Assembly (NCBI GenBank): GCA_013001885.1
Contig: JABDLD010000033.1
Location: forward strand, 709 to 64,708
Origin: Lysobacterales bacterium
GTDB lineage: Bacteria; Pseudomonadota; Gammaproteobacteria; Xanthomonadales; SZUA-36
DNA length: 64,000 nt
Direction of reading: 5' to 3'
Position 1 is the first letter of the stretch, and every line of letters begins with the position of its first letter. The notes beneath the pieces are model-generated. The model was given only the letters and a program-made list of their open reading frames with translations. It was not told the origin of the DNA and ran no database searches. Both the position numbers and the translations under genes were made by a program. Positions 38,114 to 58,580 of this stretch are shown piece by piece.

Positions 38114-38773
38114 ATGGTGGACGAAATGGAGAAAGCGCCGTCTGGCGAGCCAAAAGAAGAACTCAAGCTCAGTGAATTGCTGATTCTTGCATCCATGTGG
38201 ATGCTGTTCGGTTTCATGCTGTGGTTTTACCTTTCGGCGTTTCACGGTGCCCCGGCGCGCATGGCCGCTGACGCCATTCTCAGTTACCTTCTCGAAAGCG
38301 ATTTCTCACGCATCATCGTCGAACCGAATCAGCATTTTCTGTTCCAGGTAGAAACAGCGATCCAGTTCACCTTTAGGGACGGCACCACCGACGCGCTCGG
38401 TTTCGTGGTGAATCCGCTTATTTTCAGTTACGGCCTGCCGCTGTTGTTCGGCCTGGTCATGGGGTCGGACGTCAGCTGGCTGCGCAAGGCGGTCATCATG
38501 CTGATTGGTTATGGCGTGATCACGGCGGTACAGATCTGGGGTGTAGTGTTTGAATCGCTCAAGATGCTGGCATTCAACTTTGGTGAACCTACCCATGCCG
38601 TCGTCACCGCGCACGGTATTTCCGATACCACCATTGCACTGGGTTATCAGCTGGGCACGCTCATTTTTCCCGCGTTGGCGCCCATCTTCGTCTGGGTGTT
38701 GACTAACAGGCCGCTGGTGGAGCAGTTTGTCGGCTGGCAAGTGGGCGAGATGAACCAGAAGTGGAACCGATAA
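38114..38773 (+). CDS. Polytopic inner-membrane protein of unknown function
   Basis: 219 aa with about 4-5 hydrophobic helices and no motif I can assign. Starts 3 nt after the purL stop, immediately upstream of gspE. Confidence 0.5.
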   Translation: MVDEMEKAPSGEPKEELKLSELLILASMWMLFGFMLWFYLSAFHGAPARMAADAILSYLLESDFSRIIVEPNQHFLFQVETAIQFTFRDGTTDALGFVVNPLIFSYGLPLLFGLVMGSDVSWLRKAVIMLIGYGVITAVQIWGVVFESLKMLAFNFGEPTHAVVTAHGISDTTIALGYQLGTLIFPALAPIFVWVLTNRPLVEQFVGWQVGEMNQKWNR

Positions 38774-38827
38774 TTCATCCCGGTGTCTCTGCTGTGAGAC
38801 AATGAACGGTAAACAGGAAGTCCCCAA

Positions 38828-40567
38828 TTGCAGGCAAACGAAGAAACAATAGAATCCAGGCCGGCGGGCGTTAGCCCGGCGGAGGGCATGAACGACCCTG
38901 TCTGTGCCTACTTGCTGGACAATCGCAGGCTTAAGTCTGCCGACCTGAAGAGAGCGGTGAGCTACCAGGAGCAGCACGGCGGCAATCTGGTTACTCTACT
39001 GGTGCGTTTGGGCCTGGCCTCCGAGCACGATGTGGCCGAGGCTGAGTCAGCTTTGCTCGAAATACCGCTCATTCGCACCGCGGACTTGCCGGACGAGGCG
39101 CCGGAACTGCCCGGGATTTCAGTCCGCTATCTGAAACAGAACCTGATCCTGCCGATCGAAGAAACAAACGGCGATCTTGTCGTCGTCATGGCCAACCCCA
39201 GGGATGAATTTGCGCGCAAGGCACTGACCATGGCGAGTGGGAAAAACATCGTCCCCAGGGTCGGGATTGCATCCGAGATTGAAAACGGCATCGAGAAGTT
39301 GATGGGCGGCGGGCGTAGCGCAATGGGCCAGATCGTGGAGAGTCTGGGAGGTGAAGAAGACGGCGATATCGAGGATGTTGAACACCTCAGGGACCTCGCC
39401 TCGGAAGCCCCGGTTATCCGCCTGGTTAACCTGATCATGCAGCGGGCAGTCGAAGGTCGTGCCTCTGACATCCACATCGAACCGTTTGAAAACCGCCTGA
39501 AGGTCCGCTACCGGATAGATGGCGTTCTGCAGGAAGTCGAAGCCCCCCCGGCCAAATCTACCGCTGCGGTCATCAGCCGCATCAAGATCATGGCAAAATT
39601 GAATATTGCGGAAAGGCGCCTGCCGCAGGACGGTCGCATCATGCATCGCGTGCAGGGCAAGGAACTCGATCTGCGTGTCTCCACGGTGCCGACTTCGCAC
39701 GGAGAAAGCGTGGTCATGCGTATTCTCGACCGGGAAAGTGTCGTACTCGATTTCGACTCGCTCGGTTTCGATGATGAAATAAGGTCCGGATTCGTGCGCC
39801 ACCTGGAGATGCCGCACGGCATCATTCTCGTTACCGGCCCGACCGGGTCGGGTAAGACGACAACACTTTATACGGCGCTCAGCGCTCTGAACACGCCCGA
39901 GAGAAAAATCATCACGGTGGAAGATCCGGTTGAATACCAGCTTGAGGGGATCAACCAGATCCAGGCGAAAGCCTCGATCGGGCTGGATTTTGCCCACGCG
40001 CTCAGGTCCATCGTGAGGCAGGATCCCGACGTCATCATGATCGGTGAGATGCGCGATCTTGAAACTGCGCGAATCGCCATTCAGTCGGCGCTCACCGGCC
40101 ATCTCGTCCTGTCGACCATTCACACCAACGATGCGGCGGGCGGGGTAACGCGCATGCTGGACATGGGAGTGGAGGACTACCTCCTGACCTCCACCGTCAA
40201 TGCCATCCTGGCGCAAAGATTGGTCCGAACGCTGGATCCGGTCAGCCGGGAAGCTTACGAGCTGCTGCCTGAAGTCTCGCAGGAACTGGGCCTTGCGGAG
40301 CTCGAAGGTCAGGAGCGTTACCGGTTTTACCACGCTCGGGCTACTACGGAGAATCCAACCGGTTATCGCGGACGAACTTCGATCCTGGAATTGCTGGAGA
40401 TGTCCGACCCGGTCAGACGTCTTGTGATGCGGCACGCAACTTCCGGCGAAATACAGGACCAGGCGGTCGCTGAAGGCATGAGAACCATGTACGAGGATGG
40501 TTTGATCAAATGCCAGAAGGGCATTACGACGTTGGAAGAAGTGCTCAGGGTCACGCAGGAGTCCTGA
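38828..40567 (+). CDS. gspE: Type II secretion ATPase GspE (Xps-type, no tetracysteine motif)
   Basis: Walker A GPTGSGKTT, Asp box, Walker B (DPDVIMIGEMRD) and His box (GHLVLSTIHTN), with an N-terminal T2SSE_N-like domain. TTG start at 38828 with AGGAAG RBS; an alternative ATG lies at 38888. Confidence 0.9.
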   Translation: MQANEETIESRPAGVSPAEGMNDPVCAYLLDNRRLKSADLKRAVSYQEQHGGNLVTLLVRLGLASEHDVAEAESALLEIPLIRTADLPDEAPELPGISVRYLKQNLILPIEETNGDLVVVMANPRDEFARKALTMASGKNIVPRVGIASEIENGIEKLMGGGRSAMGQIVESLGGEEDGDIEDVEHLRDLASEAPVIRLVNLIMQRAVEGRASDIHIEPFENRLKVRYRIDGVLQEVEAPPAKSTAAVISRIKIMAKLNIAERRLPQDGRIMHRVQGKELDLRVSTVPTSHGESVVMRILDRESVVLDFDSLGFDDEIRSGFVRHLEMPHGIILVTGPTGSGKTTTLYTALSALNTPERKIITVEDPVEYQLEGINQIQAKASIGLDFAHALRSIVRQDPDVIMIGEMRDLETARIAIQSALTGHLVLSTIHTNDAAGGVTRMLDMGVEDYLLTSTVNAILAQRLVRTLDPVSREAYELLPEVSQELGLAELEGQERYRFYHARATTENPTGYRGRTSILELLEMSDPVRRLVMRHATSGEIQDQAVAEGMRTMYEDGLIKCQKGITTLEEVLRVTQES

Positions 40568-41781
40568 TGCCGCTTTTTGAATACAAAGCCGTGGCGCCCA
40601 GCGGTGAAACCGTCCAGGGCACGATGGAAGCGGGATCGCTGGACATGGTCGTCCTGAAGTTGCAGGAAGCCGGGAATATCCCGCTGCACGCCCGAGAGCA
40701 GGGCGCCGGTGGCTTCAGCCTGTCTGCTCTGCGAATGGGCCGGCGCGGGATGAATGCGCGTGAAGTGGGTGAATTTACCCAGCAGTTGTCCACGCTACTG
40801 GTTGCCGGCCTGCCGCTTGACCGCTCTCTTCAGGTCATGCTGGAGCTGTCGGAAAACGAGCGGGTTAATCGTACGGTGACCGAGATACGGGACCGCGTAA
40901 GGAGCGGCGGCAGCCTGTCAGATGCGCTGGAGGAGCAACACGGCGCATTCAACCGGCTGTTCGTCAATATGGTTCGGGCCGGTGAAGTAGGCGGCACGCT
41001 TGATGTCACGCTGTCGCGTTTGACGGATTATCTCGAGCGGTCGCGCGATCTGAAGGACAGTATCATTTCGGCACTGATTTACCCGATATTGCTGCTGGTG
41101 CTGGCGGCAGGCTCGTTGATACTGCTGCTGGTTTACGTCATTCCGCAGTTCACCCCTATCTTCGAGGAACTGGGTGGCGACCTGCCGCTCATTACCAAGC
41201 TGGTGCTGGGTGTGGGTTCGATACTGCAAAATTTCTGGTGGGCGATTGTGCTGGTTACGTTCCTGGTCGTGATGCAGTTCCGCCGGATGCTGGCCGACCC
41301 GGAAAAGCGGTTTGCGTGGGACACCCGTGTGCTGTCGATGAAGTGGGTGGGTGACCTGGTAGGCAAAATTGAAATTGCGCGACTCAGCCGCACGCTGGGC
41401 ACTCTGCTGACCAATGGCGTGCCGTTGCTCGGGGCACTTTCCATCGCGCGTAATGTCCTAAGCAATACGGTTTTGAGAAAAGACGTCACCGATGCGTCTC
41501 GCGAAGTGAAAACCGGCGGCAGCCTGGCCCATAATCTGGCCAAAAGCGGACGTTTCCCCCGCCTGGCGCTGCAGATGATCAGCGTCGGGGAAGAAACCGG
41601 GCAACTGGACGCGATGCTGCTCAAGGTTTCGGACACCTACGATGTCGAGGTCCGGAACACCATTGACCGGCTTTTGTCGGTTTTTACTCCGGTTGTTACG
41701 CTTTTGCTCGCTGTGTTGATCGGCACGATCGTTTTGTCTGTGCTGGTGGCGATACTGAGCATCAATGACCTCGTGGGCTGA
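40567..41781 (+). CDS. gspF: Type II secretion inner-membrane platform protein GspF
   Basis: ATGA overlap with gspE. MPLFEYKAV start, a duplicated T2SSF domain and three TM segments. Confidence 0.9.
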   Translation: MPLFEYKAVAPSGETVQGTMEAGSLDMVVLKLQEAGNIPLHAREQGAGGFSLSALRMGRRGMNAREVGEFTQQLSTLLVAGLPLDRSLQVMLELSENERVNRTVTEIRDRVRSGGSLSDALEEQHGAFNRLFVNMVRAGEVGGTLDVTLSRLTDYLERSRDLKDSIISALIYPILLLVLAAGSLILLLVYVIPQFTPIFEELGGDLPLITKLVLGVGSILQNFWWAIVLVTFLVVMQFRRMLADPEKRFAWDTRVLSMKWVGDLVGKIEIARLSRTLGTLLTNGVPLLGALSIARNVLSNTVLRKDVTDASREVKTGGSLAHNLAKSGRFPRLALQMISVGEETGQLDAMLLKVSDTYDVEVRNTIDRLLSVFTPVVTLLLAVLIGTIVLSVLVAILSINDLVG

Positions 41782-41823: not shown

Positions 41824-42276
41824 ATGGATCTGGACAGAATGAACATCATAATATCGCAACGTGGTTCAAATCCGCGCAGAACGTCCGACGGCTTCACTCT
41901 TGTCGAGTTGTTGCTGGTGCTGGTCATTCTCGCCCTGATCGGCGGGCTGGTTCTGCCCGGCATCATCGGTAAAGCCGAAGGCGCAAAGGTCAAGGCAGCC
42001 GGATCACAGATCAACCGCCTGGCGATGGCGGTCGAAAGTTTTTACCTCGACACCGGGAGCACTCCGGACAGCCTCGACGCGCTGGTCAGTGAGTCCGGCG
42101 GTGTCGAGGGGTGGAACGGCCCTTACGTCAAAGGATCGAGCCTGAAGGACCCCTGGGGCAGAGAATATGTCTATGAATACCCGGGTGAGCACGGTGATTT
42201 TGATATCTATTCACTGGGGGCCGACGGTCAACCGGGCGGTGAAGGCAAAAACGCGGACATCAACAGCTGGGACTGA
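41824..42276 (+). CDS. gspG: Major pseudopilin GspG
   Basis: Prepilin site G|FTLVELLLVL (Glu+5). GspG hallmark segments are present (GWNGPYVK, DPWGREYVY, SLGADGQPGGEG). Confidence 0.9.
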   Translation: MDLDRMNIIISQRGSNPRRTSDGFTLVELLLVLVILALIGGLVLPGIIGKAEGAKVKAAGSQINRLAMAVESFYLDTGSTPDSLDALVSESGGVEGWNGPYVKGSSLKDPWGREYVYEYPGEHGDFDIYSLGADGQPGGEGKNADINSWD

Positions 42277-42282
42277 TTTCAG

Positions 42283-42768
42283 TTGAGCGGCCACGGTAAA
42301 GGACGGCCTCTGGGAAAATGCGACGGGGCCGCAACCGGTTTCACACTGGTCGAAATGCTGGTCGTGCTGGTCATCGTCTCGCTGATGCTGGCGCTGGTGG
42401 GAACTTCGATTTCCCGCAACATCAGCGGAGCCGAAATGCGCACGGCGGCCAGCAAGATTGCCTCTTCATTGCGCTACACCCGAACCCAGGCGATCTTGAC
42501 CAAGTCAGAACAGGTTTTCGTGGTGGATACCGAGGCGCTCACTTACCAGGCCGGAAGCAGAAAAGCTGAAAAACTGCCTAAAGACATGAAAGTCGAATTG
42601 AATACCGCCCGTTCTGAGTTGACCTCGGAAACGGCCGGCGGTATCCGCTTCTACCCGGATGGAGGATCGACCGGCGGTAATGTCCGTCTTGAAGCCAATG
42701 GCCGTATCTACCTGGTCAACGTGGCCTGGTTGACGGGTGAAGCGTCCGTCGAGCGGCCCGAAGACTGA
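42283..42768 (+). CDS. gspH: Minor pseudopilin GspH
   Basis: TTG start and prepilin site G|FTLVEMLVVL. Size and gene order support the call. Confidence 0.75.
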   Translation: MSGHGKGRPLGKCDGAATGFTLVEMLVVLVIVSLMLALVGTSISRNISGAEMRTAASKIASSLRYTRTQAILTKSEQVFVVDTEALTYQAGSRKAEKLPKDMKVELNTARSELTSETAGGIRFYPDGGSTGGNVRLEANGRIYLVNVAWLTGEASVERPED

Positions 42769-42772
42769 ACTC

Positions 42773-43222
42773 ATGATCAAGCGAATTTCATCAAAGGCAC
42801 CCCCACGCGGAAATGGCGGCTTTACGCTGCTGGAACTGCTGCTGGCCTTCGTCGTATTCGCGCTGAGCTTTGCAACCGTGCTTGAAATCCTTTCCGGCTC
42901 AATGCGTAACACGGTCCGCGCGAGGCATTATTCCGAGGCGGCCCTGACTGCACAGTCACTGATGGACCAAGTGGGCCTGGAAATTCCGCTGGAAGCTGGG
43001 TTTGCTGCCAATGGGGAAAGCGGAGAATACGAATGGGAGATCCAGGTTTACGAATACTCCAGCACCGGCGAGAATCCCTATAGCGTGGAGTTGTCAGAGC
43101 TCACTGGCATTTTGCTGCTGCAGGTCGACCTGGCGATTTCATGGGGCGAACGCCCGCGCGAACAGACCCGTTATTTCAGCACCGTAAAAGCGATTTTGGC
43201 CAGCACGGTGCAGCAGCCATGA
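42773..43222 (+). CDS. gspI: Minor pseudopilin GspI
   Basis: ATG at 42773 and prepilin site GG|FTLLELLL. Size and order support the call. Confidence 0.75.
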   Translation: MIKRISSKAPPRGNGGFTLLELLLAFVVFALSFATVLEILSGSMRNTVRARHYSEAALTAQSLMDQVGLEIPLEAGFAANGESGEYEWEIQVYEYSSTGENPYSVELSELTGILLLQVDLAISWGERPREQTRYFSTVKAILASTVQQP

Positions 43223-43926
43223 AGCTCGGACGAGGCTTTACACTGGTAGAATTGCTGCTGGCACTGGGCTTGATGAGCATGCTGCTGGCGCTGGCTTACG
43301 GCGGGTTGCGGGCATCCACCCGGGCCGCAGATAAAGGCCAGGCCATTCTGGAAGACAGCAGCCGGATCAGGATGGCGCATCAATTCGTCAGGAAACAGCT
43401 GAACCAGATGATTCCGATCGCGTATCTCGAAGACCCTGACACCGGGGAGCGGGTTGTATTCGAGGGTTCTTCCAAGATTATCCGGTTTGTCGCCCCGATG
43501 CCCGGATACCTCGGTTTTGGCGGGCCCCAGGTGCAGGAGTTGGCGGTGGTTCCCGGTGACGAAGGCGAGATGCTGGTTCTTTCGCATGCGCTTTTGCAGG
43601 GTTTCGAGGAACAGAACCTATACTTCCGCGACCCGATTGTGCTGCTGGAAAAGGTCGGTAACGCAGAGTTCAGTTTCCTGGGCCGGGATGAAACCGGGGA
43701 ACTCACCGGCTGGACCAACCAGTGGGATCTGCCGGATGTCCTGCCGGAATCCGTATCTCTGGATGTCGAATTTGCAGATGAAGTTTACATTCAATGGCCG
43801 TTGTTGACGGCCTCGGTCCGCGTTGACCCGGCAGCTCTGCAGGGACTGGAGTCCAACATGGGAATCCGCGAGGACTACAGCACCACCATTCGTGACATGA
43901 TCAATAAACGGAGGCAGCAAAATTGA
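43219..43926 (+). CDS. gspJ: Minor pseudopilin GspJ
   Basis: ATGA overlap with gspI. The sequence begins MKLGRG|FTLVELLL. Confidence 0.75.
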   Translation: MKLGRGFTLVELLLALGLMSMLLALAYGGLRASTRAADKGQAILEDSSRIRMAHQFVRKQLNQMIPIAYLEDPDTGERVVFEGSSKIIRFVAPMPGYLGFGGPQVQELAVVPGDEGEMLVLSHALLQGFEEQNLYFRDPIVLLEKVGNAEFSFLGRDETGELTGWTNQWDLPDVLPESVSLDVEFADEVYIQWPLLTASVRVDPAALQGLESNMGIREDYSTTIRDMINKRRQQN

Positions 43927-44843
43927 AAGCCTCTCGATTAGCTGCTTTTTCCTTGAGTCCTCCCGGGCACCAGCGGGGTATCGCGCTGGTCATCGTTCTC
44001 TGGATATTGCTGCTGGTCACCATTTCAACCGGCGCCTACACCCTGATGGCGCGGATGGATCAGCTCGAGGCGCACACGGTCATCTCCAGCACGCGGGCGA
44101 GAATGGCTGCCGAATCCGGAATAAACCTTGCAGTGTTGTCGCTGCGGGATCCGGATGAACTCAACCGGCTGATTCCGGACGGCCGCCCCTACGCGTTCCA
44201 GGTCCAGGATATCTTCGTCGAAATTGAAGTAACGGACGAACGCGGCAAAGTAGACATCAACTCCGTCAACGAGCAGACCTTGTTGCAGTTGCTTCAAGGC
44301 CATGGGCTGCAGGCGGGCGACGCCGAGTACCTCGCTGCCGCCATTCTGGACTGGGTCGACGTGGACGAGATCGAGCGGGCCAGTGGTGCGGAGCTGCCTG
44401 CATACGAGTCGGCAGGTCTGGGCGTGGGTCCCGCCAACCGTCCGTTTGTCATGATTGAAGAGCTGCTGCAGGTGTTGGGAATGCCGTGGGATCTGTTCAA
44501 GAAAATGGAACCGGGATTGACCGTATTTTCCAAGTTAGGTGTGCCCGATGCCGCCTACGCGCCGCTGGAGGCGCTGCTGGCGATACCGGACATGACCGAG
44601 GAAGATGCGTTGAACTTCATTGCAGAACGGCAATCTGAGGATGCGTCAGGCGGGATGGGCGCAACGCTTCCAAACGGGCAGGTTGCCGTGGCGCGAGGCC
44701 GGGGGCTGACGTATAGTGTGCTCGCCAAAGCGACGCTGCCCAACGGGATCTGGGACCAGGTGGAAGCCACGATACGTTTAGGCGGAGGCGGGGACGGCCG
44801 GCCGTACACCGTATTGAAGTGGCAGGAAGGATTTCATAATTGA
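43923..44843 (+). CDS. gspK: Minor pseudopilin GspK
   Basis: The QRG|IALVIVLWIL N-terminus lacks Glu+5, as in GspK. About 300 aa, in the expected order. Confidence 0.75.
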   Translation: MKASRLAAFSLSPPGHQRGIALVIVLWILLLVTISTGAYTLMARMDQLEAHTVISSTRARMAAESGINLAVLSLRDPDELNRLIPDGRPYAFQVQDIFVEIEVTDERGKVDINSVNEQTLLQLLQGHGLQAGDAEYLAAAILDWVDVDEIERASGAELPAYESAGLGVGPANRPFVMIEELLQVLGMPWDLFKKMEPGLTVFSKLGVPDAAYAPLEALLAIPDMTEEDALNFIAERQSEDASGGMGATLPNGQVAVARGRGLTYSVLAKATLPNGIWDQVEATIRLGGGGDGRPYTVLKWQEGFHN

Positions 44844-45969: not shown

Positions 45970-46568
45970 TGGCGCTGATTGCAGAACAGGGAAATAATCG
46001 CCTGACAGCAATTTTGCTGTTCGTCATCGCCGTTATTTTTGTGTATCTCGTGTGCTTTCACTGGTTCATCCTGCGGCATGTGGAGTATTCCGCCGAAATT
46101 TCGGAATTGTCCACTCAACTGGGCCGGTACGAGAGAGTCGCCGCACAGAAAACACAGTACGAATCATTGCTGCAGAGTCTCGATGACCGAAAATCTGATC
46201 AGAACCTGTTTCTCGAGGGCGGCGATTTTAATGAGGCCGCGGCGGAGATGTCGGAACGCCTCAGTGTAATGGTCAACACCCAGGCAGACGACACCTGTCA
46301 GATTGTCAGCCGGCAGCCGGTGCGCCCGCGCGTGCAGGAACGATTCCAAAAGGTGACCGTCAACGTGCGTATGCGCTGTGAAATTGATGATTTGCAGAAG
46401 GTGCTGTACTCGCTTGAATCCGGCGTGCCGATGGTGATCGCTGATGAGGTCACCGTGATCAAACCAAGAACGCGGCGGCGCACGAGGAACGCCAACCCGC
46501 GTGCGACGTCCGCTCTTGATGTCCGCTTCAATATGTCCGGATATCTGAGCGCGGGAAGTGATTCGTGA
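45969..46568 (+). CDS. gspM: Type II secretion protein GspM
   Basis: ATGA overlap with gspL. N-terminal TM followed by a periplasmic ferredoxin-like-sized domain; assigned by order. Confidence 0.6.
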   Translation: MALIAEQGNNRLTAILLFVIAVIFVYLVCFHWFILRHVEYSAEISELSTQLGRYERVAAQKTQYESLLQSLDDRKSDQNLFLEGGDFNEAAAEMSERLSVMVNTQADDTCQIVSRQPVRPRVQERFQKVTVNVRMRCEIDDLQKVLYSLESGVPMVIADEVTVIKPRTRRRTRNANPRATSALDVRFNMSGYLSAGSDS

Positions 46569-50199: not shown

Positions 50200-50310
50200 T
50201 GTGCCGCGAATAGTCTGAGTGTCGACGTGCGCGCCTGTGAAAATCAGACGGGTATCGGAGAGTTCAGTTTTTTTGCAAAGCCCTGTGTACACAACTTTAG
50301 GAGTGTTGTA

Positions 50311-51957
50311 ATGAATAGAAAAAATTTGACATGTGCCGTATTGGCCGGTCTGGCAGGTGTTGCCGGACTTGCTGCTACCGCACAAGCAGTCAACCTGAAT
50401 CCGGATGGATTGGGACAAGTTCTCGTTTATCCGTATTACACCGCCAATGATGGCAACCAGACCGTTCTGTCGGTGGTTAACACCACCAACAATGCGAAAG
50501 CAGTCAAGGTCCGGTTCCTCGAAGGCTTCAATTCACGTGAAGTTCTTGACTTCAACCTGTATATGTCGGAACACGATGTGTGGGTAGCTTCTATCGCCGC
50601 TGGCGAGAACGCACCTACGCTGTTTATTCCTGACTCTTCCTGCACCGTTCCCTACCTCTACGGTATGGGTAAGGCTGCTGGTCTGGACTACGGCATGCAG
50701 CCGTTCCTGACTCTCGCTTACACCGGTGACAATGAGGATGGCGGGCCGACCGCAATCCAGCGTGCCGCTGAAGGTCATTTTGAAATGATCGAAATGGGCG
50801 TACTGACCGGCGATTCTGCTGATGACGTGCGTCATGACAATTCAGACGGTGGCACCGGCGAGCCGGCTGACTGCATGGAACTCAGCGACAAATGGTCAGA
50901 AGTGATCAACGGCACCAACGGTATCTGGTTCGACGAAGCAAACTTTGGCACCGATGATTGCACGATCGACGATCAGGCCTGCACCGACACCGACCGCGCC
51001 AGCGGCGGACTGTTCGGCGGCGCTGCGGTGGTTAACGCAACCAACGGCACCATGTACAGCTATGACGCCAAGGCCATTCAGGGCTTCGACAAGACTGACA
51101 ACGGTCTGCACTACGAGCCCGGCACCATCTTCCCGTCACTGCGTAGCGGTAGCGAGTCTGATGCATGGGTCTTCTTTGGTGTTCCGCAGAATACTGCAGT
51201 TCAGCTTGATTACTCTGACGAAGATGACCTCAGCGTTGACGCGGTTTCAGCCGTGTTCATGCACGAAAACCTGATGAACGAGTACACCACCGAGGACGAC
51301 CTGTCGGCCGGAACCGAGTGGATCATCACGTTCCCGACCAAGGCTTTCTACGCTGACGCAGCCCTGATGGTTTCATTGGGTATCGATGAAGAAGCTTGCA
51401 CAGGTGATGGTGACGATGAAGTGTGCGTTACCACTCCTCGCGCTCCTTTCACCCAGTTGTTTGGTGATGAAAGTGCCGACGGCGACCGTCTGTGCGAAGT
51501 CGTATCCCTGAAGACCTGGGATCGCGAAGAGAAGACGTTCGTACCCGAAGGTCCGGGCACCGGCGTAATTCCTCCGCAGGTTTCACCGGCTCCGCCGCGT
51601 GAGTGCATCACCGGCCTCGAGCCCGCTTGCACGGAGTCGACCGTATTCCAGCTGTGTAACGAAGTCAACGTCCTTCGCTTTGGTGAAAGGTCAGTCTTCG
51701 GTACTCCGGACTTCGGTGCTGACGGCAGCCTGCTGCTTTCCGTTCAGGACGAGTTCGAGAACGGCTGGGGCAAGATCAACCTGGGTGTTGACGGTGACGG
51801 CGATCTGCGCACCGACAGAGAAGGCCTGGTTGGCTTGCCGGTTGCTGGCTTTGCCGCTTACGAATTCGAAAACGATTTCGTGGACAATGACGGCATCAAG
51901 GCCTTCTACGGCGGCCTGTTCGGCCACAAGGGCAACGTGCGTCGCGTTAACGACTAA
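50311..51957 (+). CDS. Secreted acidic Cys-containing protein of unknown function (candidate T2SS cargo or surface-layer protein)
   Basis: ATG at 50311 is preceded by a strong SD (TTAGGAGTGTTGTAATG). The Sec signal peptide ends in ATAQA|VNL. The mature protein is rich in D/E/G/T with 10 Cys and no C-terminal TM or sorting signal. I recognise no family. Confidence 0.7.
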   Translation: MNRKNLTCAVLAGLAGVAGLAATAQAVNLNPDGLGQVLVYPYYTANDGNQTVLSVVNTTNNAKAVKVRFLEGFNSREVLDFNLYMSEHDVWVASIAAGENAPTLFIPDSSCTVPYLYGMGKAAGLDYGMQPFLTLAYTGDNEDGGPTAIQRAAEGHFEMIEMGVLTGDSADDVRHDNSDGGTGEPADCMELSDKWSEVINGTNGIWFDEANFGTDDCTIDDQACTDTDRASGGLFGGAAVVNATNGTMYSYDAKAIQGFDKTDNGLHYEPGTIFPSLRSGSESDAWVFFGVPQNTAVQLDYSDEDDLSVDAVSAVFMHENLMNEYTTEDDLSAGTEWIITFPTKAFYADAALMVSLGIDEEACTGDGDDEVCVTTPRAPFTQLFGDESADGDRLCEVVSLKTWDREEKTFVPEGPGTGVIPPQVSPAPPRECITGLEPACTESTVFQLCNEVNVLRFGERSVFGTPDFGADGSLLLSVQDEFENGWGKINLGVDGDGDLRTDREGLVGLPVAGFAAYEFENDFVDNDGIKAFYGGLFGHKGNVRRVND

Positions 51958-51999
51958 ACGTACTTGCCATAAAGAAATCATAGCTTCGGCGATGATGAG

Positions 52000-52030
52000 G
52001 AAGGGGCTGCATTCGCAGCCCCTTCTTTTA
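52000..52030 (+). terminator. Rho-independent terminator after the 548-aa protein gene
   Basis: Perfect 11-bp stem gaaggggctgc / gcagccccttc with loop attc, followed by tttta. Confidence 0.8.
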
Positions 52031-52068
52031 TCCCGCCCTATTTTTTAACTTGTATAACCTGGAAATCA

Positions 52069-53022
52069 ATGACCATTCGATCCATTAAATCCCTAGTGGT
52101 GATATTGACCGTCCTGACGCAGAGCGCGATATTTGCCCAGCAAGAGTCAACGGACACCAAGGCCAGCTCATCAAACGACATTTTTGCCCGCCAGGGTAGT
52201 GTCGTGCTGACCCATAGTGAGCTCGACGCCGCCTTTTCCCGTATACCGCCGGAATTCCGTCTGGCCTTCATTCGTGACGGAGCGAAGGTGGATGACCTGG
52301 TAAAGTCCCTGCTGCGTCTGAAGCTGGTCGCCGCTGATGCCTCCCGTTCCGGTTTTGACCAGCAACCCATGATTGCTGAACGAATGCAGCTTGCGGCCGA
52401 AAAGGAGCTGGCGGAAGCGTGGGTGGGCAACCTGATTGAAAACGCGCCGGAGGCTGATTACGAGGCCCTGGCGCTGGAATACTACCTGGCTCACCCGGAT
52501 GAGTTCAAAATGCCGGAAAGGGTCGATGTTTCGCACATCCTGATTTCTTCAGAAACCCGATCCGAGGAAAAAGCGCTGGCGCTTGCCACCCGGCTGCATG
52601 ATGACTTGCGCACTGATCCGTCGCAGTTTGATGGATACGTCACAGAATATTCTGAAGACCCCGCGAAAACCAGCAACGCCGGCCGTTACCCCGGCATGCA
52701 GCGCGGCCAGATGGTCAAGCGATTTGAAGAGGCGGCTTTTACGCTGCAGCAACCGGGGGACATCACGGAGCCGGTGAAAACGTCTTACGGCTACCACATA
52801 ATACGGCTGAACCAGGCCAAGCCCTCCGCGCCAATCCCGTTTGAGCAAATCAAGGAACAGGCGTCTGAAATGGCAAAGGAGCAGTATCTGTCGGAATACC
52901 GCGCACGGTATATCAAACAGCAGATTGCAGAACCCATCGAACTGGCTGATGGAGCGGCTGAGGCGATGGTTAAACGGTATTTTGGAGAAGAACTGGAATT
53001 GATTCCGGAATTTCCAGAGTGA
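52069..53022 (+). CDS. Periplasmic parvulin-type peptidyl-prolyl cis-trans isomerase (SurA/PpiD-like N-domain)
   Basis: Signal peptide (..SAIFAQQ). Parvulin core VSHILI...MVKRFEEAAF...PVKTSYGYHIIRL. Confidence 0.8.
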   Translation: MTIRSIKSLVVILTVLTQSAIFAQQESTDTKASSSNDIFARQGSVVLTHSELDAAFSRIPPEFRLAFIRDGAKVDDLVKSLLRLKLVAADASRSGFDQQPMIAERMQLAAEKELAEAWVGNLIENAPEADYEALALEYYLAHPDEFKMPERVDVSHILISSETRSEEKALALATRLHDDLRTDPSQFDGYVTEYSEDPAKTSNAGRYPGMQRGQMVKRFEEAAFTLQQPGDITEPVKTSYGYHIIRLNQAKPSAPIPFEQIKEQASEMAKEQYLSEYRARYIKQQIAEPIELADGAAEAMVKRYFGEELELIPEFPE

Positions 53023-53054: not shown

Positions 53055-53831
53055 GTGAATTTGCTGACCAATAATGTCTTCCGCCAGTTGGTTTCGCGCG
53101 CCATCAGGACGGACTATCTCGAGAACCTGACGGGTTTTGCCTGGCTGATACTACAGCCGCTGGTTCTTCTGGCTGTTTACGCTTTCGTATTCACGACGAT
53201 TTTTACCGCCAGGGTGCCGGATTCCGGCGCCGGCGGCTTTGTTCCGTATCTTGCGGTCGCGTTTTGGCCCTGGACTGCATTTTCCGAAGCGGTTTTACGC
53301 TCGTCCAACTGTGTCAGCGCCAATGCCGCGCTGATCGGCAAAGTGGCTTTTCCCAGCGAGTTGCTGCCTTTGTCTGCAGTAACTGCCACGTTCCTGATGA
53401 ACCTGGCAGGCTACCTGGCCGTGCTGGTCGTTCTGCAGTTACTGGGAACACCGATCCATTGGCTCGGCGTAATACCGGCTTTGCCGGTGCTGCTACTGCT
53501 CTACCTGTTTGCGAACGGACTGGCGCTGTTTTTCAGTGCCCTGCAGGTATTTATCCGGGACGTTTCCCAAATTTTGCCGCCGCTGATGACCTTCTGGTTT
53601 TTCACCACGCCCATCCTCTATAGCTCGAGCCTGCTGCCGGAACAGTTCGCTACGCTGATGAAGTTCAACCCGATGTCCTGGTACGTTGAGCGGCTCCGTG
53701 ATTTCCTGTTGCTCGGTAACTATGACCTCTCCCCTTACGATGCTGTGGTGCCTGTGCTCACGGTGATCGTGTTTTGGGCGGCGCTGCGGTTCTTCCGCAA
53801 GTTCAGCGCGCATTTCGAGGATTTTCTCTGA
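53055..53831 (+). CDS. wzm: ABC-2 type polysaccharide exporter permease (Wzm-like)
   Basis: GTG start. Six TM segments with an ABC-2 pattern (FAWLILQPLVLLAVYAFVF, NPMSWYVE). Confidence 0.8.
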   Translation: MNLLTNNVFRQLVSRAIRTDYLENLTGFAWLILQPLVLLAVYAFVFTTIFTARVPDSGAGGFVPYLAVAFWPWTAFSEAVLRSSNCVSANAALIGKVAFPSELLPLSAVTATFLMNLAGYLAVLVVLQLLGTPIHWLGVIPALPVLLLLYLFANGLALFFSALQVFIRDVSQILPPLMTFWFFTTPILYSSSLLPEQFATLMKFNPMSWYVERLRDFLLLGNYDLSPYDAVVPVLTVIVFWAALRFFRKFSAHFEDFL

Positions 53832-55018
53832 TGAAGCCATTGGTGAGAATAAGGGGCGTATCCAAATTCTACCCAAGGGTGCACCGGCCGCGGGAGCGCT
53901 TGCGGGCGTTTGCTTCGCTGATGGCCGGCAGCAGGATACGCGAGGGGGCAGAGGTCCTGCATGACGTCAGCCTGGAAGTAACCGCCGGCCAGTCGTTTGG
54001 AATCATCGGGGAGAACGGCGCCGGAAAATCGACCTTGCTCAAGATTCTGACGGGTGTGATCAGCCCCAGCCGGGGAAGTGTAGAGGTCAACGCCCGCATC
54101 GCCGCCTTGCTGGAACTGGGAGCGGGCTTTCAACCTGAGTTTTCCGGTATCGATAACGTCAGGATGAAGTCTGCACTGCTGGGCATGAGCGCAAGCCATC
54201 TCGACGCGCACATGGATGAAATCCTCGCCTTTGCAGATATCGGTGATTACGTGTACGAGCCGGTCAAGCACTACTCGTCCGGCATGGTGGTCCGGCTTGG
54301 GTTCGCAGTCGTGGCGGCTTCCGATCCCCAACTGCTGATCACTGACGAGGTACTGGCCGTTGGTGATGAGGCGTTTCAGAAAAAGTGCATTCGCTGGATC
54401 GAGTCTTTTCTCGATCGGGGCAATACGCTGTTGATGGTTTCCCACAGCATGTACCTGGTGCAAAAGCTTTGCCGCCAGGCTTTGTGGCTGCACGACGGCC
54501 GCATGCGGGAGATCGGGGACGTGTTTCCGGTCACGCAGTCTTACCTGGCCTACAGCGAGGAGCGTACCTCGGCGGAAAGGCGGCACCGCAGGGAACAAAG
54601 CGGTGACAGCGGACTTTATCGAATTAAGGATTTTGCCCTGCCTGATCAGGAAGGGGAGCGGGATCTTGTGATCGGGTTCGGCGGCGATCTAAGAGCGGAA
54701 CTGGTGCTGCACTCTCCGGATGGCCAGCCTCCGGTCGCCTTGTTTGGCGTCATGCGCGCCGACGGCACGCCTGTCTATGGAGTCGCCTCCGATTTCGATG
54801 AAATCGAAGCAGAGAAGCTCGATCAAAACCATTTTCGCTTCCGCATCTGTTTTGACCAACTGCCTCTGCTGCCAGGCAGCTATTCACTTCGGGGTCACGC
54901 AATGGATTCCCAGGGTATCCGCTTGTGCGACACGGCCGAACTGCGGTTCAGCGTAGCGGGTGAATCCCGGGAGATGGGAATGATTCGATTGCCTCACAGT
55001 TGGAACGGGCAAGAGTAA
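53831..55018 (+). CDS. wzt: Polysaccharide ABC exporter ATP-binding protein (Wzt-like) with C-terminal beta-sandwich extension
   Basis: TGATG overlap with wzm. Walker A GENGAGKST, signature YSSGMVVRL and Walker B LLITDE. An extra domain of about 140 aa follows the NBD (..LLPGSYSLRGHAMD..), as in Wzt carbohydrate-binding domains. Confidence 0.85.
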   Translation: MKPLVRIRGVSKFYPRVHRPRERLRAFASLMAGSRIREGAEVLHDVSLEVTAGQSFGIIGENGAGKSTLLKILTGVISPSRGSVEVNARIAALLELGAGFQPEFSGIDNVRMKSALLGMSASHLDAHMDEILAFADIGDYVYEPVKHYSSGMVVRLGFAVVAASDPQLLITDEVLAVGDEAFQKKCIRWIESFLDRGNTLLMVSHSMYLVQKLCRQALWLHDGRMREIGDVFPVTQSYLAYSEERTSAERRHRREQSGDSGLYRIKDFALPDQEGERDLVIGFGGDLRAELVLHSPDGQPPVALFGVMRADGTPVYGVASDFDEIEAEKLDQNHFRFRICFDQLPLLPGSYSLRGHAMDSQGIRLCDTAELRFSVAGESREMGMIRLPHSWNGQE

Positions 55019-55025
55019 TCTTCGC

Positions 55026-55871
55026 ATGACCGGCGCAGCCGAAAAAATCTCCGTTGTGATCCCGGCGTACAACGCCGCCGAGGAACTGGCGTGCTGCCTG
55101 GAAAGCGTATTCGCGACTACCCCGATGAGCACGGAAGTCTTGATTATTGACGATGCGTCACCCGATCCGGCAACGCAAAGGGTGCTGGACGATTGGCGGG
55201 AAAAAGCTCCGGCAGGCTGGACCTTCACCCGCCACGAGCAAAACCTGGGTTTCGTCGCAACGGCCAACCGGGGTATGCGCGCAACGCATGGCGACGTTGT
55301 GTTGCTCAATTCGGACACGCTGGTCACGCCTCGCTGGCTGGAAGGCTTGCAGCGATGTCTGGCATCCGGTTCAGAGATCGCCACGGCCACGCCTTGGACC
55401 AACAACGGCGAAATTGCCTCCATTCCGCTGTTCTGCGAATCCAACCCGGTGCCTCCGGACGTTGATGCAGTTGCTGCCGCCATCGCGCAGGCTGGATCCC
55501 GCGGGTATCCTGAGCTGCCGACCGCGGTAGGTTTTTGCATGGCCGTATCCCGGAGAGCCATTGAGCGGGTCGGTGTCTTCAACGCCGAACAGTTCGGCAA
55601 GGGCTACGGCGAGGAGAACGATTTTTCGCTGCGGGCCGCCGCCGCGGGAATGCGTAACGTGTTGTGTGACGACGTATACGTTGCTCACCTGGGCGGCCGG
55701 TCGTTCGGCCCTGCCGGGCTGAAGCCCGACGAGTCGTCAATGCAGCGGCTGCTAGCCCTCCATCCCGGCTACCTGCAGCTGGTACAGTCATTTATCGAAA
55801 CGGACCCGCTTTTTGCCAGGCGAACGCTTGTTTTGGAAGCATTGGAGCGGGCCGGGGTCTCGATGGGTTAA
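55026..55871 (+). CDS. Glycosyltransferase family 2
   Basis: ISVVIPAYNAAEEL...IIDDASPD...LNSDT GT-A (DxD-type) motifs. Confidence 0.8.
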   Translation: MTGAAEKISVVIPAYNAAEELACCLESVFATTPMSTEVLIIDDASPDPATQRVLDDWREKAPAGWTFTRHEQNLGFVATANRGMRATHGDVVLLNSDTLVTPRWLEGLQRCLASGSEIATATPWTNNGEIASIPLFCESNPVPPDVDAVAAAIAQAGSRGYPELPTAVGFCMAVSRRAIERVGVFNAEQFGKGYGEENDFSLRAAAAGMRNVLCDDVYVAHLGGRSFGPAGLKPDESSMQRLLALHPGYLQLVQSFIETDPLFARRTLVLEALERAGVSMG

Positions 55872-55876
55872 AATCT

Positions 55877-56794
55877 ATGCCACACGGACATTCCACGGAG
55901 ATCGACTTGTCCCAATCCCTCGACTTTACCGGTGAACGCTTTACCCCCGAGTGTGTGCGGGAAATCTGGTACGAGCATCTGCATCGTTACGTCTTCGCTC
56001 GTGAGCTGGTTGCCGGGCTGAACGTTCTGGATGCCGCTTGCGGCGAAGGTTACGGCGCGGCCATACTGGCGGGACCGGCCGCTTCGGTGACCGGCGTGGA
56101 TCTGTCCCCCTCCGCGATTGACCATGCCTGTAAACGTTACCGAGTGAAAAATCTCGATTTTCAGGTGGCCGACTGCCTGTCTTTGCCGTTTGCAGACGAG
56201 CAATTCGATTGCATCGTCTCATTCGAGACCCTCGAGCATCTCGAGGACCACCAGGGTTTGATGAATGAGTTCAGGCGGGTGTTGAGGCCGCAGGGAATCC
56301 TGTTGCTGTCTTCTCCCGACCGGGCGGTGTACACGGACCGGCAAAACAACCGAAATGAGTATCACGTCCGGGAGCTGTACCGGGACGAATTCGAGGCGCT
56401 TTTGCAGACGCATTTTCCGGCGTACCGTCTTTGGGGCCAAAAACTGCTTTTCCAGTCGGCCATCTGGTCGCTCAGCGAGAATCCCGGCGTCGGCTTTCAC
56501 CAGGAGGACGGCGGGCAGATTGAAAAGTACGCCTCTCCCCGCCACGACCCGGTTTATTTCATTGCGGTATGCGCTGCGGCCGAGGACTTACTGCCCTCGA
56601 TACGGCCGGGCCTGAGCTTGTTCGATGATGCTGCCGAATCGGTGTACGAGCATTACTATCACGAGATTCGTAAGAATATGGCTGCTGGCGAAATCCTTGC
56701 GAAAAAAGAGCGGGAACTGGCGGAACTGAAGGCAGCGTTGCAAAAAAGCAAAAGCGCAGCTCGCTGGTGGAGCCGTCTGCTGGGTAAAAGCTGA
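55877..56794 (+). CDS. Class I SAM-dependent methyltransferase with C-terminal coiled coil
   Basis: SAM motif I VLDAACGEGYG and post-I GVDLS. A C-terminal helical tail is present (AAGEILAKKERELAELKAALQKSK). Confidence 0.8.
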   Translation: MPHGHSTEIDLSQSLDFTGERFTPECVREIWYEHLHRYVFARELVAGLNVLDAACGEGYGAAILAGPAASVTGVDLSPSAIDHACKRYRVKNLDFQVADCLSLPFADEQFDCIVSFETLEHLEDHQGLMNEFRRVLRPQGILLLSSPDRAVYTDRQNNRNEYHVRELYRDEFEALLQTHFPAYRLWGQKLLFQSAIWSLSENPGVGFHQEDGGQIEKYASPRHDPVYFIAVCAAAEDLLPSIRPGLSLFDDAAESVYEHYYHEIRKNMAAGEILAKKERELAELKAALQKSKSAARWWSRLLGKS

Positions 56795-57684
56795 TGCAGG
56801 AAGCCGGAGTCAAACCGGCGGTGGAAGTCATCGTGGTTAATTTCAACGCTGGATCCGCACTGGTTCGCTGTATTCAATCCATCCTGGCGCAACAGCAACC
56901 GGTCAACATCACGGTTGCGGATAATGCCTCGACTGACGGCAGTATCAGCCGGCTGCTGGAATCCCTCGGGCCGCTGGACAACCTGGCCGTGCTGGCTAAT
57001 GACCAGAACCTGGGTTTCGCCAGCGCCATCAATGAAGCCGCCCGTTTGCGCGAGCTGCGCGGGCGTTACCTGCTCATCCTGAATCCGGATTGTGAAATGT
57101 TGCCCGGTTCTCTGGCCGCGATGATTGAAGCGCTGGAACAGGACGAACAGGCCGGCCTGGCCGGGCCGATGGTCGTGAATCGTGAGCACCAGCCCATGCG
57201 CGGAACCTTGCGCCGGTTTCCGGGCCCGGGCTCCGCCTTTCTGACGTTTTCCGGATTGTGGCGGCTGGCCCGGTGGTTTCCTTTCTTCAGCGGGGTGGAA
57301 ATGATGGACCGGCTACCCGCGGAAACAGCCACCGCTGAGGCCGTATCGGGTGCCTGCATGCTGCTGAGGGTGTCTGACTTTTTGAGCGTCGGCGGCATGG
57401 ACGGGGATTACGGCCTTCATTGCGAAGACCTCGACCTGATGTACCGGCTGCGGCAGAAGGGCCGTCATTGCCTGTTCGTTCCGGCAGCACAGGTCTTTCA
57501 TGCCCAGGGAGTCTCAAGCAGCGGGCGGCCGGTCTGGGTGCATTGGCAGAAACATCTGGGGATGCAGCGTTTTTTCAAAAAATTCCAGGCCGGGCAGACT
57601 TTTTTGCTGCTTCGCTGGCTGGTGCTCGCAGGTATCTGGCTGCGCTTTGTCGTAACACTCCCGCTGGTATGGATACGGCGCTGA
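56794..57684 (+). CDS. Glycosyltransferase family 2 (rhamnosyltransferase-like)
   Basis: ATGA overlap with the methyltransferase. VIVVNFNAGSAL...VADNASTDGS...LNPDC motifs. Confidence 0.8.
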   Translation: MQEAGVKPAVEVIVVNFNAGSALVRCIQSILAQQQPVNITVADNASTDGSISRLLESLGPLDNLAVLANDQNLGFASAINEAARLRELRGRYLLILNPDCEMLPGSLAAMIEALEQDEQAGLAGPMVVNREHQPMRGTLRRFPGPGSAFLTFSGLWRLARWFPFFSGVEMMDRLPAETATAEAVSGACMLLRVSDFLSVGGMDGDYGLHCEDLDLMYRLRQKGRHCLFVPAAQVFHAQGVSSSGRPVWVHWQKHLGMQRFFKKFQAGQTFLLLRWLVLAGIWLRFVVTLPLVWIRR

Positions 57685-58580
57685 ATACCGGCCGCCGGGA
57701 TCGGGTGATTGTCACCGGAGCAAGCAGTCAACTGGGTGTGTTCCTGTTGCCCAGACTGCAGGCCGCGGGATTCAGAGTTCTTGCGCTCAGCCGGAATGCG
57801 CCGGCGTCACCGGTCGACATATCGGAGAGCGTTCGTTGGTTGAGGTCTGATAAGGCATTGGCCCCGGCCTGTTGCCTCGTTTCCTGTGGGCCGCTTGAGC
57901 TTGCGCGCACGCTGGCCGAGCAGACTTCGGGCCTGCAGCGCGTTGTCGCGTTCAGCACAAGCAGTGTCCTGACCAAAGCCCGTTCAGACAATCCTGAAGA
58001 AAGCCGTCAGATGGCAGAAATACTCGCTCACGAGCGGCTACTGCGCGCAACCTGCGACATACAGGGTATCGCACTGGCATTGATTCGGCCCACGATGATT
58101 TACGGCTGCGGGCTGGACCGAAACATCAGCCTGCTGGCGGCTTTTGGGCGGCGCTTCGGTTTTATTCCAGTATCCTCGTCGGCAGGGGGTTTACGCCAGC
58201 CGGTTCATGCAGACGATCTGGCGGCGCTTGCGCTAGCCTGTCTGTCAAGTGAAACGGCGCTCAGTTTGGAAAGCGTCGCCTGCGGCGGCAGCACTCTAAG
58301 CTACTGCAAAATGATGGAAAAAACGGCTGCGGCAGGTGGAAAAGACGTTTCCATATTAAAGCTCAATCCGCGTTTGTTCAGTTTCGCGGCAAGCCTTGCC
58401 TCGTTGGTGCCGGGATTCAAAGGTCTGAATCCGGAGATGGTTCGCCGACAGGGAAGAGACATGGTATTCGATGACTCTGAACTGAGAGAAAAACTGAATT
58501 ATCAACCCCGGCCGTTCGAGCCGGCCCCGGCCGATCTGCAGGTTCCAGGTTTTGCCCGAGAACTGCAGTTAACCGGATAG
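57669..58580 (+). CDS. NAD(P)-binding SDR/epimerase-family protein
   Basis: The start is trimmed to the ATG at 57669. Rossmann motif [11 protein letters not shown]. The function within the glycan cluster is not assignable from sequence. Confidence 0.55.

Follow-up and report, generated by a model that had tools for sequence, protein, structure and literature searches.

The locus described here, a block of co-directional genes of ~20 kb at positions 38114-58580, is probably an NpdA-type surface-layer (S-layer) biogenesis locus, in which a lattice of the S-layer protein NpdA would be exported by a type II secretion system (T2SS) and anchored to an O-polysaccharide exported by an ATP-binding cassette (ABC) transporter. 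It lies in a stretch of Lysobacterales DNA of 64,000 nucleotides (nt), hereafter the window, and all coordinates are positions in that window. At its centre is the gene for a 548-amino-acid (aa) protein that, judged by homology, is a member of the NpdA family over its full length. The linkage of this gene with those for the T2SS, a small lipoprotein, a periplasmic foldase and the Wzm/Wzt exporter is, on comparison of gene order, a conserved module across Gamma- and Betaproteobacteria.

Assignment to the NpdA family follows from a full-length match in BLASTP and a probability of 100% in hhalign. Compared with NpdA of Paracidovorax citrulli (WP_011797163, sequence taken from the supplement of PMC10765051), the window protein aligns at E=3e-21, residues 14-540 against 28-526, i.e. 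over the full length, and a profile of 125 window-family sequences aligns with the same protein at E=3.3e-41 over 441 columns. Motifs common to the two proteins in these alignments are GxGxxLxxPY(Y/F), KAVKVRF, DREE and GLP, and the window protein is ~25% identical to experimentally validated NpdA proteins. Neither Pfam nor NCBIfam gave a match to the 548-aa protein, and a PDB sequence search with the family profile gave noise only (E>0.2). The gene is as follows:

50311-51957, plus strand: npdA-family S-layer protein, 548 aa; ATG at 50311; isoelectric point 4.05; 26-aa Sec signal peptide ending in AQA

Read from the translation, the signal peptide is MNRKNLTCAVLAGLAGVAGLAATAQA, with cleavage before VNLN, and the protein contains 11 cysteines.

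The S-layer of P. citrulli AAC00-1 consists of NpdA ("nanopod protein A"), as established by deletion, proteomics and cryo-electron microscopy (cryo-EM) (Gajbhiye 2023, PMC10765051), and so does that of Delftia acidovorans Cs1-4 (Shetty 2011, PMC3110197). The published protein is annotated as hypothetical and has a 25-aa signal peptide, no domains and a gsp cluster upstream, one of two gsp clusters in P. citrulli being reported in the same work (PMC10765051). Orthologues are tabulated there in 62 beta- and 49 gammaproteobacterial species, with hosts including Wenzhouxiangella limi, W. marina, strain AB-CW3, Rudaea cellulosilytica, Chiayiivirga, Rhodanobacter and Lysobacter, and an S-layer was seen by cryo-EM in 15 of 16 npdA-bearing cultures, R. 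cellulosilytica included (PMC10765051). A genome scan with the window protein returned the same organisms as the survey, and the R. cellulosilytica orthologue falls in the same synteny group as the window NpdA. By its sequence, the window locus is a new, divergent NpdA-family case from a clade already covered by the 2023 survey. The earlier note on this DNA, made from the letters alone, had proposed an S-layer-like protein exported by the adjacent T2SS, and in this it was right, through full-length homology to the experimentally established NpdA. It had also called the system undescribed and its central protein a member of no recognised family; both statements have to be withdrawn, as NpdA and its upstream gsp cluster were published in 2011 and 2023, with orthologues from Wenzhouxiangella, Rudaea, Chiayiivirga and Lysobacter. 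The proposal of an S-layer with its T2SS is thus not new, the 2023 survey having covered the orthologues of this clade with gsp genes upstream. Homologues of the window protein number in the thousands, labelled "hypothetical", in genomes of Lysobacterales, Xanthomonadales and Wenzhouxiangellaceae; an exhaustive profile search for the NpdA family gave 4,411 representative clusters, and a pattern scan for the clade-specific NpdA set gave 557 GTDB species.

An AlphaFold2 model of the window NpdA made with 125 diverse sequences has a predicted local distance difference test score (pLDDT) of 89.6 and a predicted template modelling score of 0.90, and is mainly beta; an earlier run with 31 close homologues (pLDDT 54.7) was too poor to use. 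Foldseek searches of the model against the PDB and BFVD gave no match at E<=1e-3, and only a generic galectin-like beta-sandwich likeness. A confident model with no PDB relative suggests that NpdA has a new S-layer fold. Conservation peaks in the N-terminal domain (residues 27-115) and the core strands, while the indel-rich loops at 167-231, 351-394 and 411-446 vary in length (spans of 29-95, 18-107 and 10-37 aa, respectively). Cysteines 111, 188, 395 and 449 are shared by 96% or more of the NpdA sequences, and the charged residues K63, K66, R68, R76, D89, D108, D143, R151, E154, K344 and R405 are invariant. This pattern of conservation fits an assembled, surface-exposed lattice protein, short of proof. 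The many invariant charged residues and the four conserved cysteines, along with a fold that has no known S-layer relative, would also suit a soluble secreted enzyme or a monomeric adhesin that forms no lattice. That the 548-aa protein is of this kind seems very improbable, given its full-length homology to an S-layer protein validated by genetics and structure, the S-layers of the npdA-bearing cultures described above, and the lack of any enzyme-family match in Pfam, NCBIfam, PDB or Foldseek searches.

The genes of the locus were called by Pfam and NCBIfam family scans of the open reading frames (ORFs) of the window. All lie on the plus strand, either 0-183 nt apart or with the stop codon of one gene overlapping the start of the next in the ORF list, and the family scans give the order 4-transmembrane (4-TM) protein, GspE-F-G-H-I-J-K, GspL, GspM, XpsN-like protein, GspD, 146-aa lipoprotein, 548-aa protein, peptidyl-prolyl isomerase (PPIase), Wzm, Wzt, family 2 glycosyltransferase (GT2), methyltransferase, GT2 and short-chain dehydrogenase/reductase (SDR). 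The lipoboxes of GspD and the 146-aa protein were read straight off the translations. The genes on either side of npdA are:

38114-38773, plus strand: 4-TM inner-membrane protein, exosortase H-associated (XrtH_assoc); NF041730, E=4e-38, 130.9 bits (cut-off 35)
38828-40567, plus strand: gspE, T2SS ATPase; PF00437, E=4e-140; MshEN domain; the actual start may be the ATG at 38888
40567-41781, plus strand: gspF, inner-membrane platform; PF00482, E=1e-59, in two stretches; start overlaps the gspE stop
41824-42276, plus strand: gspG, major pseudopilin; PF08334, E=8e-34; N_methyl motif
42283-42768, plus strand: gspH, minor pseudopilin; PF12019; N_methyl motif
42737-43222, plus strand: gspI, minor pseudopilin; prepilin N_methyl motif only, named by position
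43141-43926, plus strand: gspJ, minor pseudopilin; prepilin N_methyl motif only, named by position
43923-44843, plus strand: gspK; PF21687, E=7e-16
44851-45969, plus strand: gspL-like assembly protein with PilN domain; PF05137, E=2e-8; Comamonas counterpart annotated "PilN domain-containing protein"
45969-46568, plus strand: gspM, XpsM type; NF040576, E=1.5e-38, 132 bits (cut-off 60); PF10741
46565-47353, plus strand: XpsN-like protein, GspC equivalent with no PDZ domain; NF041470, E=2e-13, below cut-off; PF28060 XpsN on the orthologue in locus L081
47337-49658, plus strand: gspD, secretin with N-terminal lipobox (liposecretin); TIGR02517, E=1e-130, 437 bits (cut-off 351)
49685-50125, plus strand: small lipoprotein, 146 aa; lipobox LGGC; between gspD and npdA
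52069-53022, plus strand: periplasmic parvulin foldase/chaperone (PPIase) of the PEB4/HP0175/PrsA type; Rotamase Pfam families; signal peptide
53055-53831, plus strand: wzm, ABC-2 permease of the polysaccharide exporter; PF01061 (ABC2_membrane), E=9e-14
53831-55018, plus strand: wzt, exporter ATPase with C-terminal carbohydrate-binding domain; ABC_tran and Wzt_C, the latter 31.5 bits (cut-off 30.4)
55026-55871, plus strand: GT2 glycosyltransferase; PF00535, E=1e-21
55877-56794, plus strand: class I S-adenosylmethionine-dependent methyltransferase with C-terminal coiled-coil-like tail; Methyltransf_11, E=8e-26; candidate chain-capping enzyme
56794-57684, plus strand: second GT2 glycosyltransferase; PF00535, E=1.5e-18
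57669-58580, plus strand: NAD-dependent epimerase/SDR-like protein; PF01370, E=1e-6, N-terminal Rossmann part only; ATG overlaps the end of the GT2 gene

These calls confirm the gene order and co-directionality given in the earlier note, and its Xps-type T2SS with a liposecretin, of which E, F, G, H, K, M and D were matched to families, L via its PilN domain, and N weakly. The core set of an Xps-type T2SS is present (E, F, G-K, L/M, a C/N component and D); no gene for the prepilin peptidase GspO lies in the locus. The lipobox of GspD reads VAAC here and LAGC in the Rudaea protein. The glycan genes that had been listed (Wzm, Wzt with a C-terminal domain, two GT2 enzymes, a methyltransferase and an SDR) were all found, with the correction that the methyltransferase gene stands between the two GT2 genes and the SDR gene comes last. 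No Pfam or NCBIfam family matched the 146-aa lipoprotein.

The neighbourhood was followed in two sets of loci: a gamma set of 80 GTDB Lysobacterales-type loci with a homologue of the window NpdA at 36-71% identity, and a beta set of 36 long Comamonadaceae-type loci from a metagenome scan with P. citrulli NpdA, with proteins 22-55% identical. Denominators are the loci testable for each gene (50-73 in the gamma set, 24-33 in the beta set). Across the gamma loci, the order gspF-gspD, lipoprotein, npdA, PPIase, wzm, wzt, GT2, methyltransferase, GT2, SDR is kept nearly without exception (lipoprotein 72/73, gspD 68/69, PPIase 58/58, wzm 54/55 and wzt 54/54). The beta loci give the same picture (lipoprotein 30/33, gspD 33/33, PPIase 28/28, wzm 26/26 and wzt 24/24), and the flanking ettA and glyA are not kept alongside them. 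Comamonas odontotermitis, for example, has the order rfbBDAC, gspE-gspM, a hypothetical protein, gspD, a 122-aa hypothetical protein, a "cell surface protein", a peptidylprolyl isomerase, an ABC permease, an ABC ATPase, and methyltransferases and glycosyltransferases. The window lipoprotein is homologous to the 122-aa Comamonas ORF at the matching position (E=1e-9), and the window PPIase to the Comamonas PPIase (E=2e-24). GT2 homologues are found downstream in 45/50 gamma loci, and ones that are 38-49% identical lie near beta loci on the opposite strand; methyltransferase domains occur in the beta loci too, one of which carries a 1283-aa enzyme with methyltransferase, GT2 and GT4 parts beside wzt. 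When co-occurrence was checked, as the earlier note had suggested, homologues of the 548-aa protein proved to be kept with the T2SS and wzm/wzt in gamma and beta loci alike. Since this linkage to npdA persists in beta loci with different flanks, the adjacency is not coincidental, which had been the alternative offered.

Two individual loci stand out. L163 1-8079 (C. odontotermitis NZ_CP083452.1, 292020-301429), upstream of the npdA-linked T2SS, carries a second ABC ATPase, a methyltransferase of 952 aa and the dTDP-rhamnose genes rfbBDAC; in Comamonas, an O-antigen cluster of the rhamnan type surrounds the S-layer module. Its record, NZ_CP083452.1, is labelled as a 373-kb non-mobilizable plasmid, yet looks like a chromid or a misassigned piece of chromosome because it carries the core genes argB, slmA and a coaX-like gene. 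L057 (CAYZLS010000086.1, npdA homologue at 5834-7351) is the sole gamma locus whose 5.8 kb of upstream sequence lacks homologues of both gspD and the lipoprotein gene, and its npdA homologue may be a second, unlinked copy.

In the publications on NpdA, the gsp cluster is the neighbour that is described. PMC10765051 makes no mention of glycosyltransferases, lipopolysaccharide (LPS), O-antigen, isomerase or ABC transporters; the lipoprotein, PPIase, Wzm/Wzt and glycosyltransferase genes are unmentioned in both NpdA papers (PMC3110197, PMC10765051); and no paper linking NpdA with Wzt was found in the literature searched. The accessory set (lipoprotein, foldase, Wzm/Wzt and modifying enzymes) and its spread over two classes appear to be the new part of the present analysis.

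In Wenzhouxiangella AB-CW3, whose locus is identical between purL and ettA, these genes are expressed, according to the proteome table in the supplement of PMC7691419. Values in the table are 0.25-0.34 for the NpdA orthologue, 0.25-0.51 for the PPIase, 0.13-0.19 for the lipoprotein and 0.014 for GspE. AB-CW3 has a second T2SS with the genes GspC(PDZ)-GspD-GspE-GspF (abcw3|01235-01240). That the npdA-linked T2SS would be a dedicated S-layer exporter, by analogy with Aeromonas, fits the presence of a second T2SS in AB-CW3 and P. citrulli, which is consistent with such a role and no proof of it.

The products encoded after npdA suggest how the protein could be folded and held at the surface. The nearest PDB relatives of the window PPIase are Cbf2 of Campylobacter jejuni (3rfw) and HP0175 of Helicobacter pylori, with residues 30-280 matched. 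The best PDB match of Wzt is a 404-aa chain named "ABC transporter" (8dku/7k2t, E=1e-57), which we take to be Wzt of Aquifex aeolicus, carbohydrate-binding domain included; the match covers residues 5-354 and so runs past the ATPase domain. In AB-CW3, the gene in the position of the SDR-like gene bears the annotation "NAD dependent epimerase/dehydratase family". We infer anchoring through the glycan from the synteny together with an older report on Delftia, in which, as cited in PMC3110197, the S-layer protein of D. acidovorans required LPS to reassemble in vitro (Engelhardt).

In the proposed mechanism, pre-NpdA would cross the inner membrane via Sec, fold in the periplasm and form two conserved disulfides, assisted by the PEB4-like foldase, and the adjacent T2SS would then move it out through the liposecretin. 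In parallel, the GT2 enzymes would assemble a polysaccharide on undecaprenyl phosphate. The methyltransferase would cap this chain, the C-terminal domain of Wzt would recognise the cap, and Wzm/Wzt would export the polymer, to be ligated to lipid A-core by functions encoded elsewhere; the outcome would be an O-polysaccharide of defined length. The N-terminal domain of NpdA (its most conserved part) would bind the polymer and so keep the lattice at a constant distance from the outer membrane. The dependence of NpdA on the linked T2SS, PPIase and glycan is suggested by the arrangement of the genes.

The same genes could serve a different end if the Wzm/Wzt glycan were attached to NpdA itself, making it an S-layer glycoprotein, instead of forming an LPS anchor. 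The glycan genes come right after npdA in every locus, and S-layer glycan clusters of Geobacillus and Paenibacillus use Wzm/Wzt with methyl-capped chains. We nevertheless consider an S-layer glycoprotein improbable. No oligosaccharyltransferase or Wzy_C-type gene is found in the locus, and in the part of the AB-CW3 table examined this exporter is the sole one annotated as an O-antigen exporter. In addition, in the Delftia work, the protein made in Escherichia coli had the predicted size, and reassembly needed LPS, not a protein glycan.

Several findings weigh against an NpdA lattice anchored to O-polysaccharide as the explanation of the whole block. A WbdD-like identity of the methyltransferase was considered and found no support, as there were generic methyltransferases only among the PDB matches and no WbdD-like terminator signature. 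Neither an initiating transferase (WecA/WbaP type) nor a WaaL ligase was found among the ORFs scanned, and these may lie elsewhere in the genome; the upstream ORFs at 1-19 kb, looked at for WaaL, WecA and exosortase, contain housekeeping genes only. The locus also has no sugar-nucleotide genes, so that the glycan could end up in LPS, as a capsule-like polymer or as a protein glycan. Four conserved cysteines are unusual for S-layer proteins. NpdA of AB-CW3 is high yet not the dominant protein, unlike classical S-layer proteins, although SDS (sodium dodecyl sulfate)-resistant oligomers of NpdA may be under-counted in that proteome. Finally, the unrelated purL, ettA and glyA at the flanks are equally syntenic within Lysobacterales, so that the gamma data alone are weak and the argument rests on the beta loci. 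The last two points are also what would be expected if the neighbours were co-located with no specific dependence, a general T2SS and an ordinary O-antigen pathway sharing an envelope gene island with npdA, and the T2SS is indeed Xps-type by its XpsM/XpsN matches, i.e. of the type of the general T2SS of Xanthomonas. We regard co-location of this kind as unlikely: Comamonadaceae keep the same order at 22-55% protein identity despite different flanks, both AB-CW3 and P. citrulli have another T2SS, and the small lipoprotein and the PPIase, to which no general role is assigned, are kept beside npdA in nearly all loci. An NpdA lattice with an O-polysaccharide anchor stays the preferred reading of the block.

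A broader proposal, which we put forward tentatively and hold to be somewhat less probable than its opposite, is that a self-contained ~20-kb module, passed on as one piece by inheritance or transfer among Beta- and Gammaproteobacteria, builds NpdA S-layers. Its parts would be a dedicated T2SS of Xps type, a small lipoprotein of the outer membrane, a periplasmic foldase resembling PEB4 and a capped, length-controlled O-polysaccharide that serves mainly as the S-layer anchor. If this is true, an S-layer exporter of this kind could be the ancestor of the general Xps T2SS of Xanthomonas.

The signals around npdA were found by reading the sequence, aligning loci and folding, a consensus scanner having missed both promoter and terminator:

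50171-50199, plus strand: npdA promoter, sigma-70-like (predicted); -35 TTGCTT, 17-nt spacer, -10 TAATAT
50285-50303, plus strand: 3' part of the npdA leader; palindrome TGTGTACACA at 50285-50294 and Shine-Dalgarno AGGAG at 50299-50303; invariant in 10/10 loci
52000-52031, plus strand: intrinsic terminator 3' of npdA; 11-bp GC-rich stem, 4-nt loop, UUUUAU run

The -35 and -10 hexamers are invariant or almost so in the 10 aligned loci, in which NpdA identity is 43-85%. The leader is ~104 nt long and has no marked structure overall (folding z=-0.41), and the terminator folds at -26.2 kcal/mol (z=-6.3, with 0/200 shuffles equally stable). Judging from its conserved promoter, its leader, the strong ribosome-binding site and the terminator hairpin, npdA is its own transcription unit, and the PPIase-to-SDR genes form a tightly packed set after the terminator. 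The codon bias of npdA is not decisive on expression: its effective number of codons, 42.6, is the lowest of 28 genes, yet no outlier. Within the leader, TGTGTACACA is a perfect 10-bp palindrome that is invariant in all ten loci while the middle of the leader varies; it might bind a regulator or act in the control of translation.

Immediately after npdA, 48/80 gamma loci have an extra gene, between npdA and the PPIase gene, for a secreted protein of 310-770 aa (L014-L080; e.g. L080:11691-12755 and L016:11875-14091). It is absent from the window, where 51958-52068 holds the terminator and spacer only. These proteins form one family by BLAST clustering, with no Pfam or NCBIfam match and a C-terminal motif ~C.L..NT.YY.N..FT...C, and the AB-CW3 member (abcw3|00740) is expressed. 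The family may be a second surface-layer component.

Variation was also seen in NpdA itself. About 20 of the best 150 NpdA representatives are 830-1650 aa long and carry two full NpdA repeats (P0361-P0371, P0373, P0375, P0381, P0382, P0397 and P0435), being either tandem fusions or fused gene calls of neighbouring paralogues; P0233 and P0234 are two NpdA paralogues on one 504-kb contig. Outside these lineages, small plasmids of Nitratiruptor (Campylobacterota) encode hypothetical proteins that match the NpdA N-terminal domain only, over residues 28-100 or 32-201 at 30-44% identity (NZ_AP023066.1, 8268-8720; NZ_AP023064.1 / NZ_AP023060.1, 26064-26288). These matches hint that the N-terminal domain may stand alone outside Proteobacteria proper.

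The first gene of the block, described in the earlier note as encoding an unknown membrane protein, belongs to the exosortase H-associated family listed above (NF041730), and PF28117 is recorded on its homologues. It begins 3 nt past the purL stop (38110-38114), and the order purL, XrtH_assoc gene, gspE is repeated in L081 and Wenzhouxiangella AB-CW3; in Comamonas the gene is absent upstream of gspE. Many metagenomic relatives share at least 76% identity in this protein, which is far more conserved than NpdA. Because of the family match, an exosortase and its substrates were looked for. A six-frame scan of the window found no IPTLxxWG-type C-terminal motif and one chance PEP motif only. A TM scan of the window revealed no further multi-TM ORF; one upstream candidate was scanned against families, the upstream ORFs not being systematically run against the exosortase model. 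No exosortase annotation occurs in the part of the AB-CW3 table examined, a literature search for XrtH gave no match, and no homologues were found on plasmids. NpdA, for its part, has no C-terminal TM anchor. With no IPTLxxWG substrate and no exosortase-like ORF seen in the window, a reading of the locus as one of exosortase (XrtH) sorting was rejected, and the XrtH_assoc protein may stand outside the S-layer module.

The locus is flanked upstream by purL and dsbC, and downstream by ettA (on the minus strand), followed by glyA, nrdR and ribD. Further upstream, positions 1-34163 hold housekeeping genes that are mostly syntenic with Wenzhouxiangella AB-CW3. They encode DUF481, PepP, two UbiH/F-like monooxygenases, CysK, a LysR regulator, TrpRS, FAA hydrolase and ProRS, along with a CDP-alcohol phosphatidyltransferase, ValRS, PepA, LptF/LptG, an ExbB/ExbD/TonB set, XerD and DsbC.

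The NpdA family of S-layer proteins is large and little studied, with all members still annotated as "hypothetical", and its hosts include nitrifiers, sulfur oxidisers, plant pathogens and abundant Lysobacterales of sediment and soil. The window protein and thousands of homologues can now be named as members of the NpdA family. The conserved neighbours (T2SS, lipoprotein, PEB4-like foldase, Wzm/Wzt, and the capping and glycosyltransferase genes) make the export and anchoring of NpdA directly testable.

Among known systems, the closest are the NpdA proteins of Delftia Cs1-4 and P. citrulli, which resemble the window protein in their ~25-aa Sec signal, their mature mass of 52-58 kDa and their lack of annotated domains, and whose genes likewise lie just after a T2SS cluster in Xps order. 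The window protein differs from them in sequence (the identity of ~25% given above) and carries clade-specific, Cys-rich insertions. The window T2SS cluster is like the Xps cluster of Xanthomonas in its E-F-G-H-I-J-K-L-M-N-D order, its XpsM/XpsN-type parts and its lipoprotein secretin. Xps is the general T2SS of Xanthomonas, exporting degradative enzymes, and is not known to be linked to npdA, whereas the window cluster is joined to an S-layer gene and glycan genes.

Slr4 of Pseudoalteromonas tunicata is a marine gammaproteobacterial S-layer protein encoded just downstream of a conserved T2SS cluster, and export by a dedicated T2SS has been proposed for it (PMC7821379). It is presented as a family of its own, modelled on RsaA, and NpdA is unmentioned there (PMC7821379). 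For the A-layer of Aeromonas salmonicida/hydrophila, vapA and a dedicated Sps/Aps T2SS lie within an ABC-2 O-antigen cluster (PMC4483657). The earlier note had drawn on this analogy, and accurately so, the order being wzm, sps T2SS genes and vapA, wzt (PMC4483657). As in the window, there is a T2SS cluster with the S-layer gene at its end, and wzm/wzt and glycosyltransferases alongside; a second, general T2SS lies elsewhere in the Aeromonas genome. The two differ in that the S-layer genes stand between wzm and wzt in Aeromonas and before both in the window, and in that a PPIase or a small lipoprotein is not described for Aeromonas.

RsaA of Caulobacter crescentus uses type I secretion and is a protein unrelated to NpdA, with calcium-binding RTX-like repeats. 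Its gene is clustered with its own secretion system, like npdA in the window. The N-terminal domain of RsaA anchors the lattice to a defined-length O-antigen from an ABC-transporter-dependent pathway, and the Caulobacter precedent, as does that of Aeromonas, links S-layer gene, secretion system and O-antigen genes.

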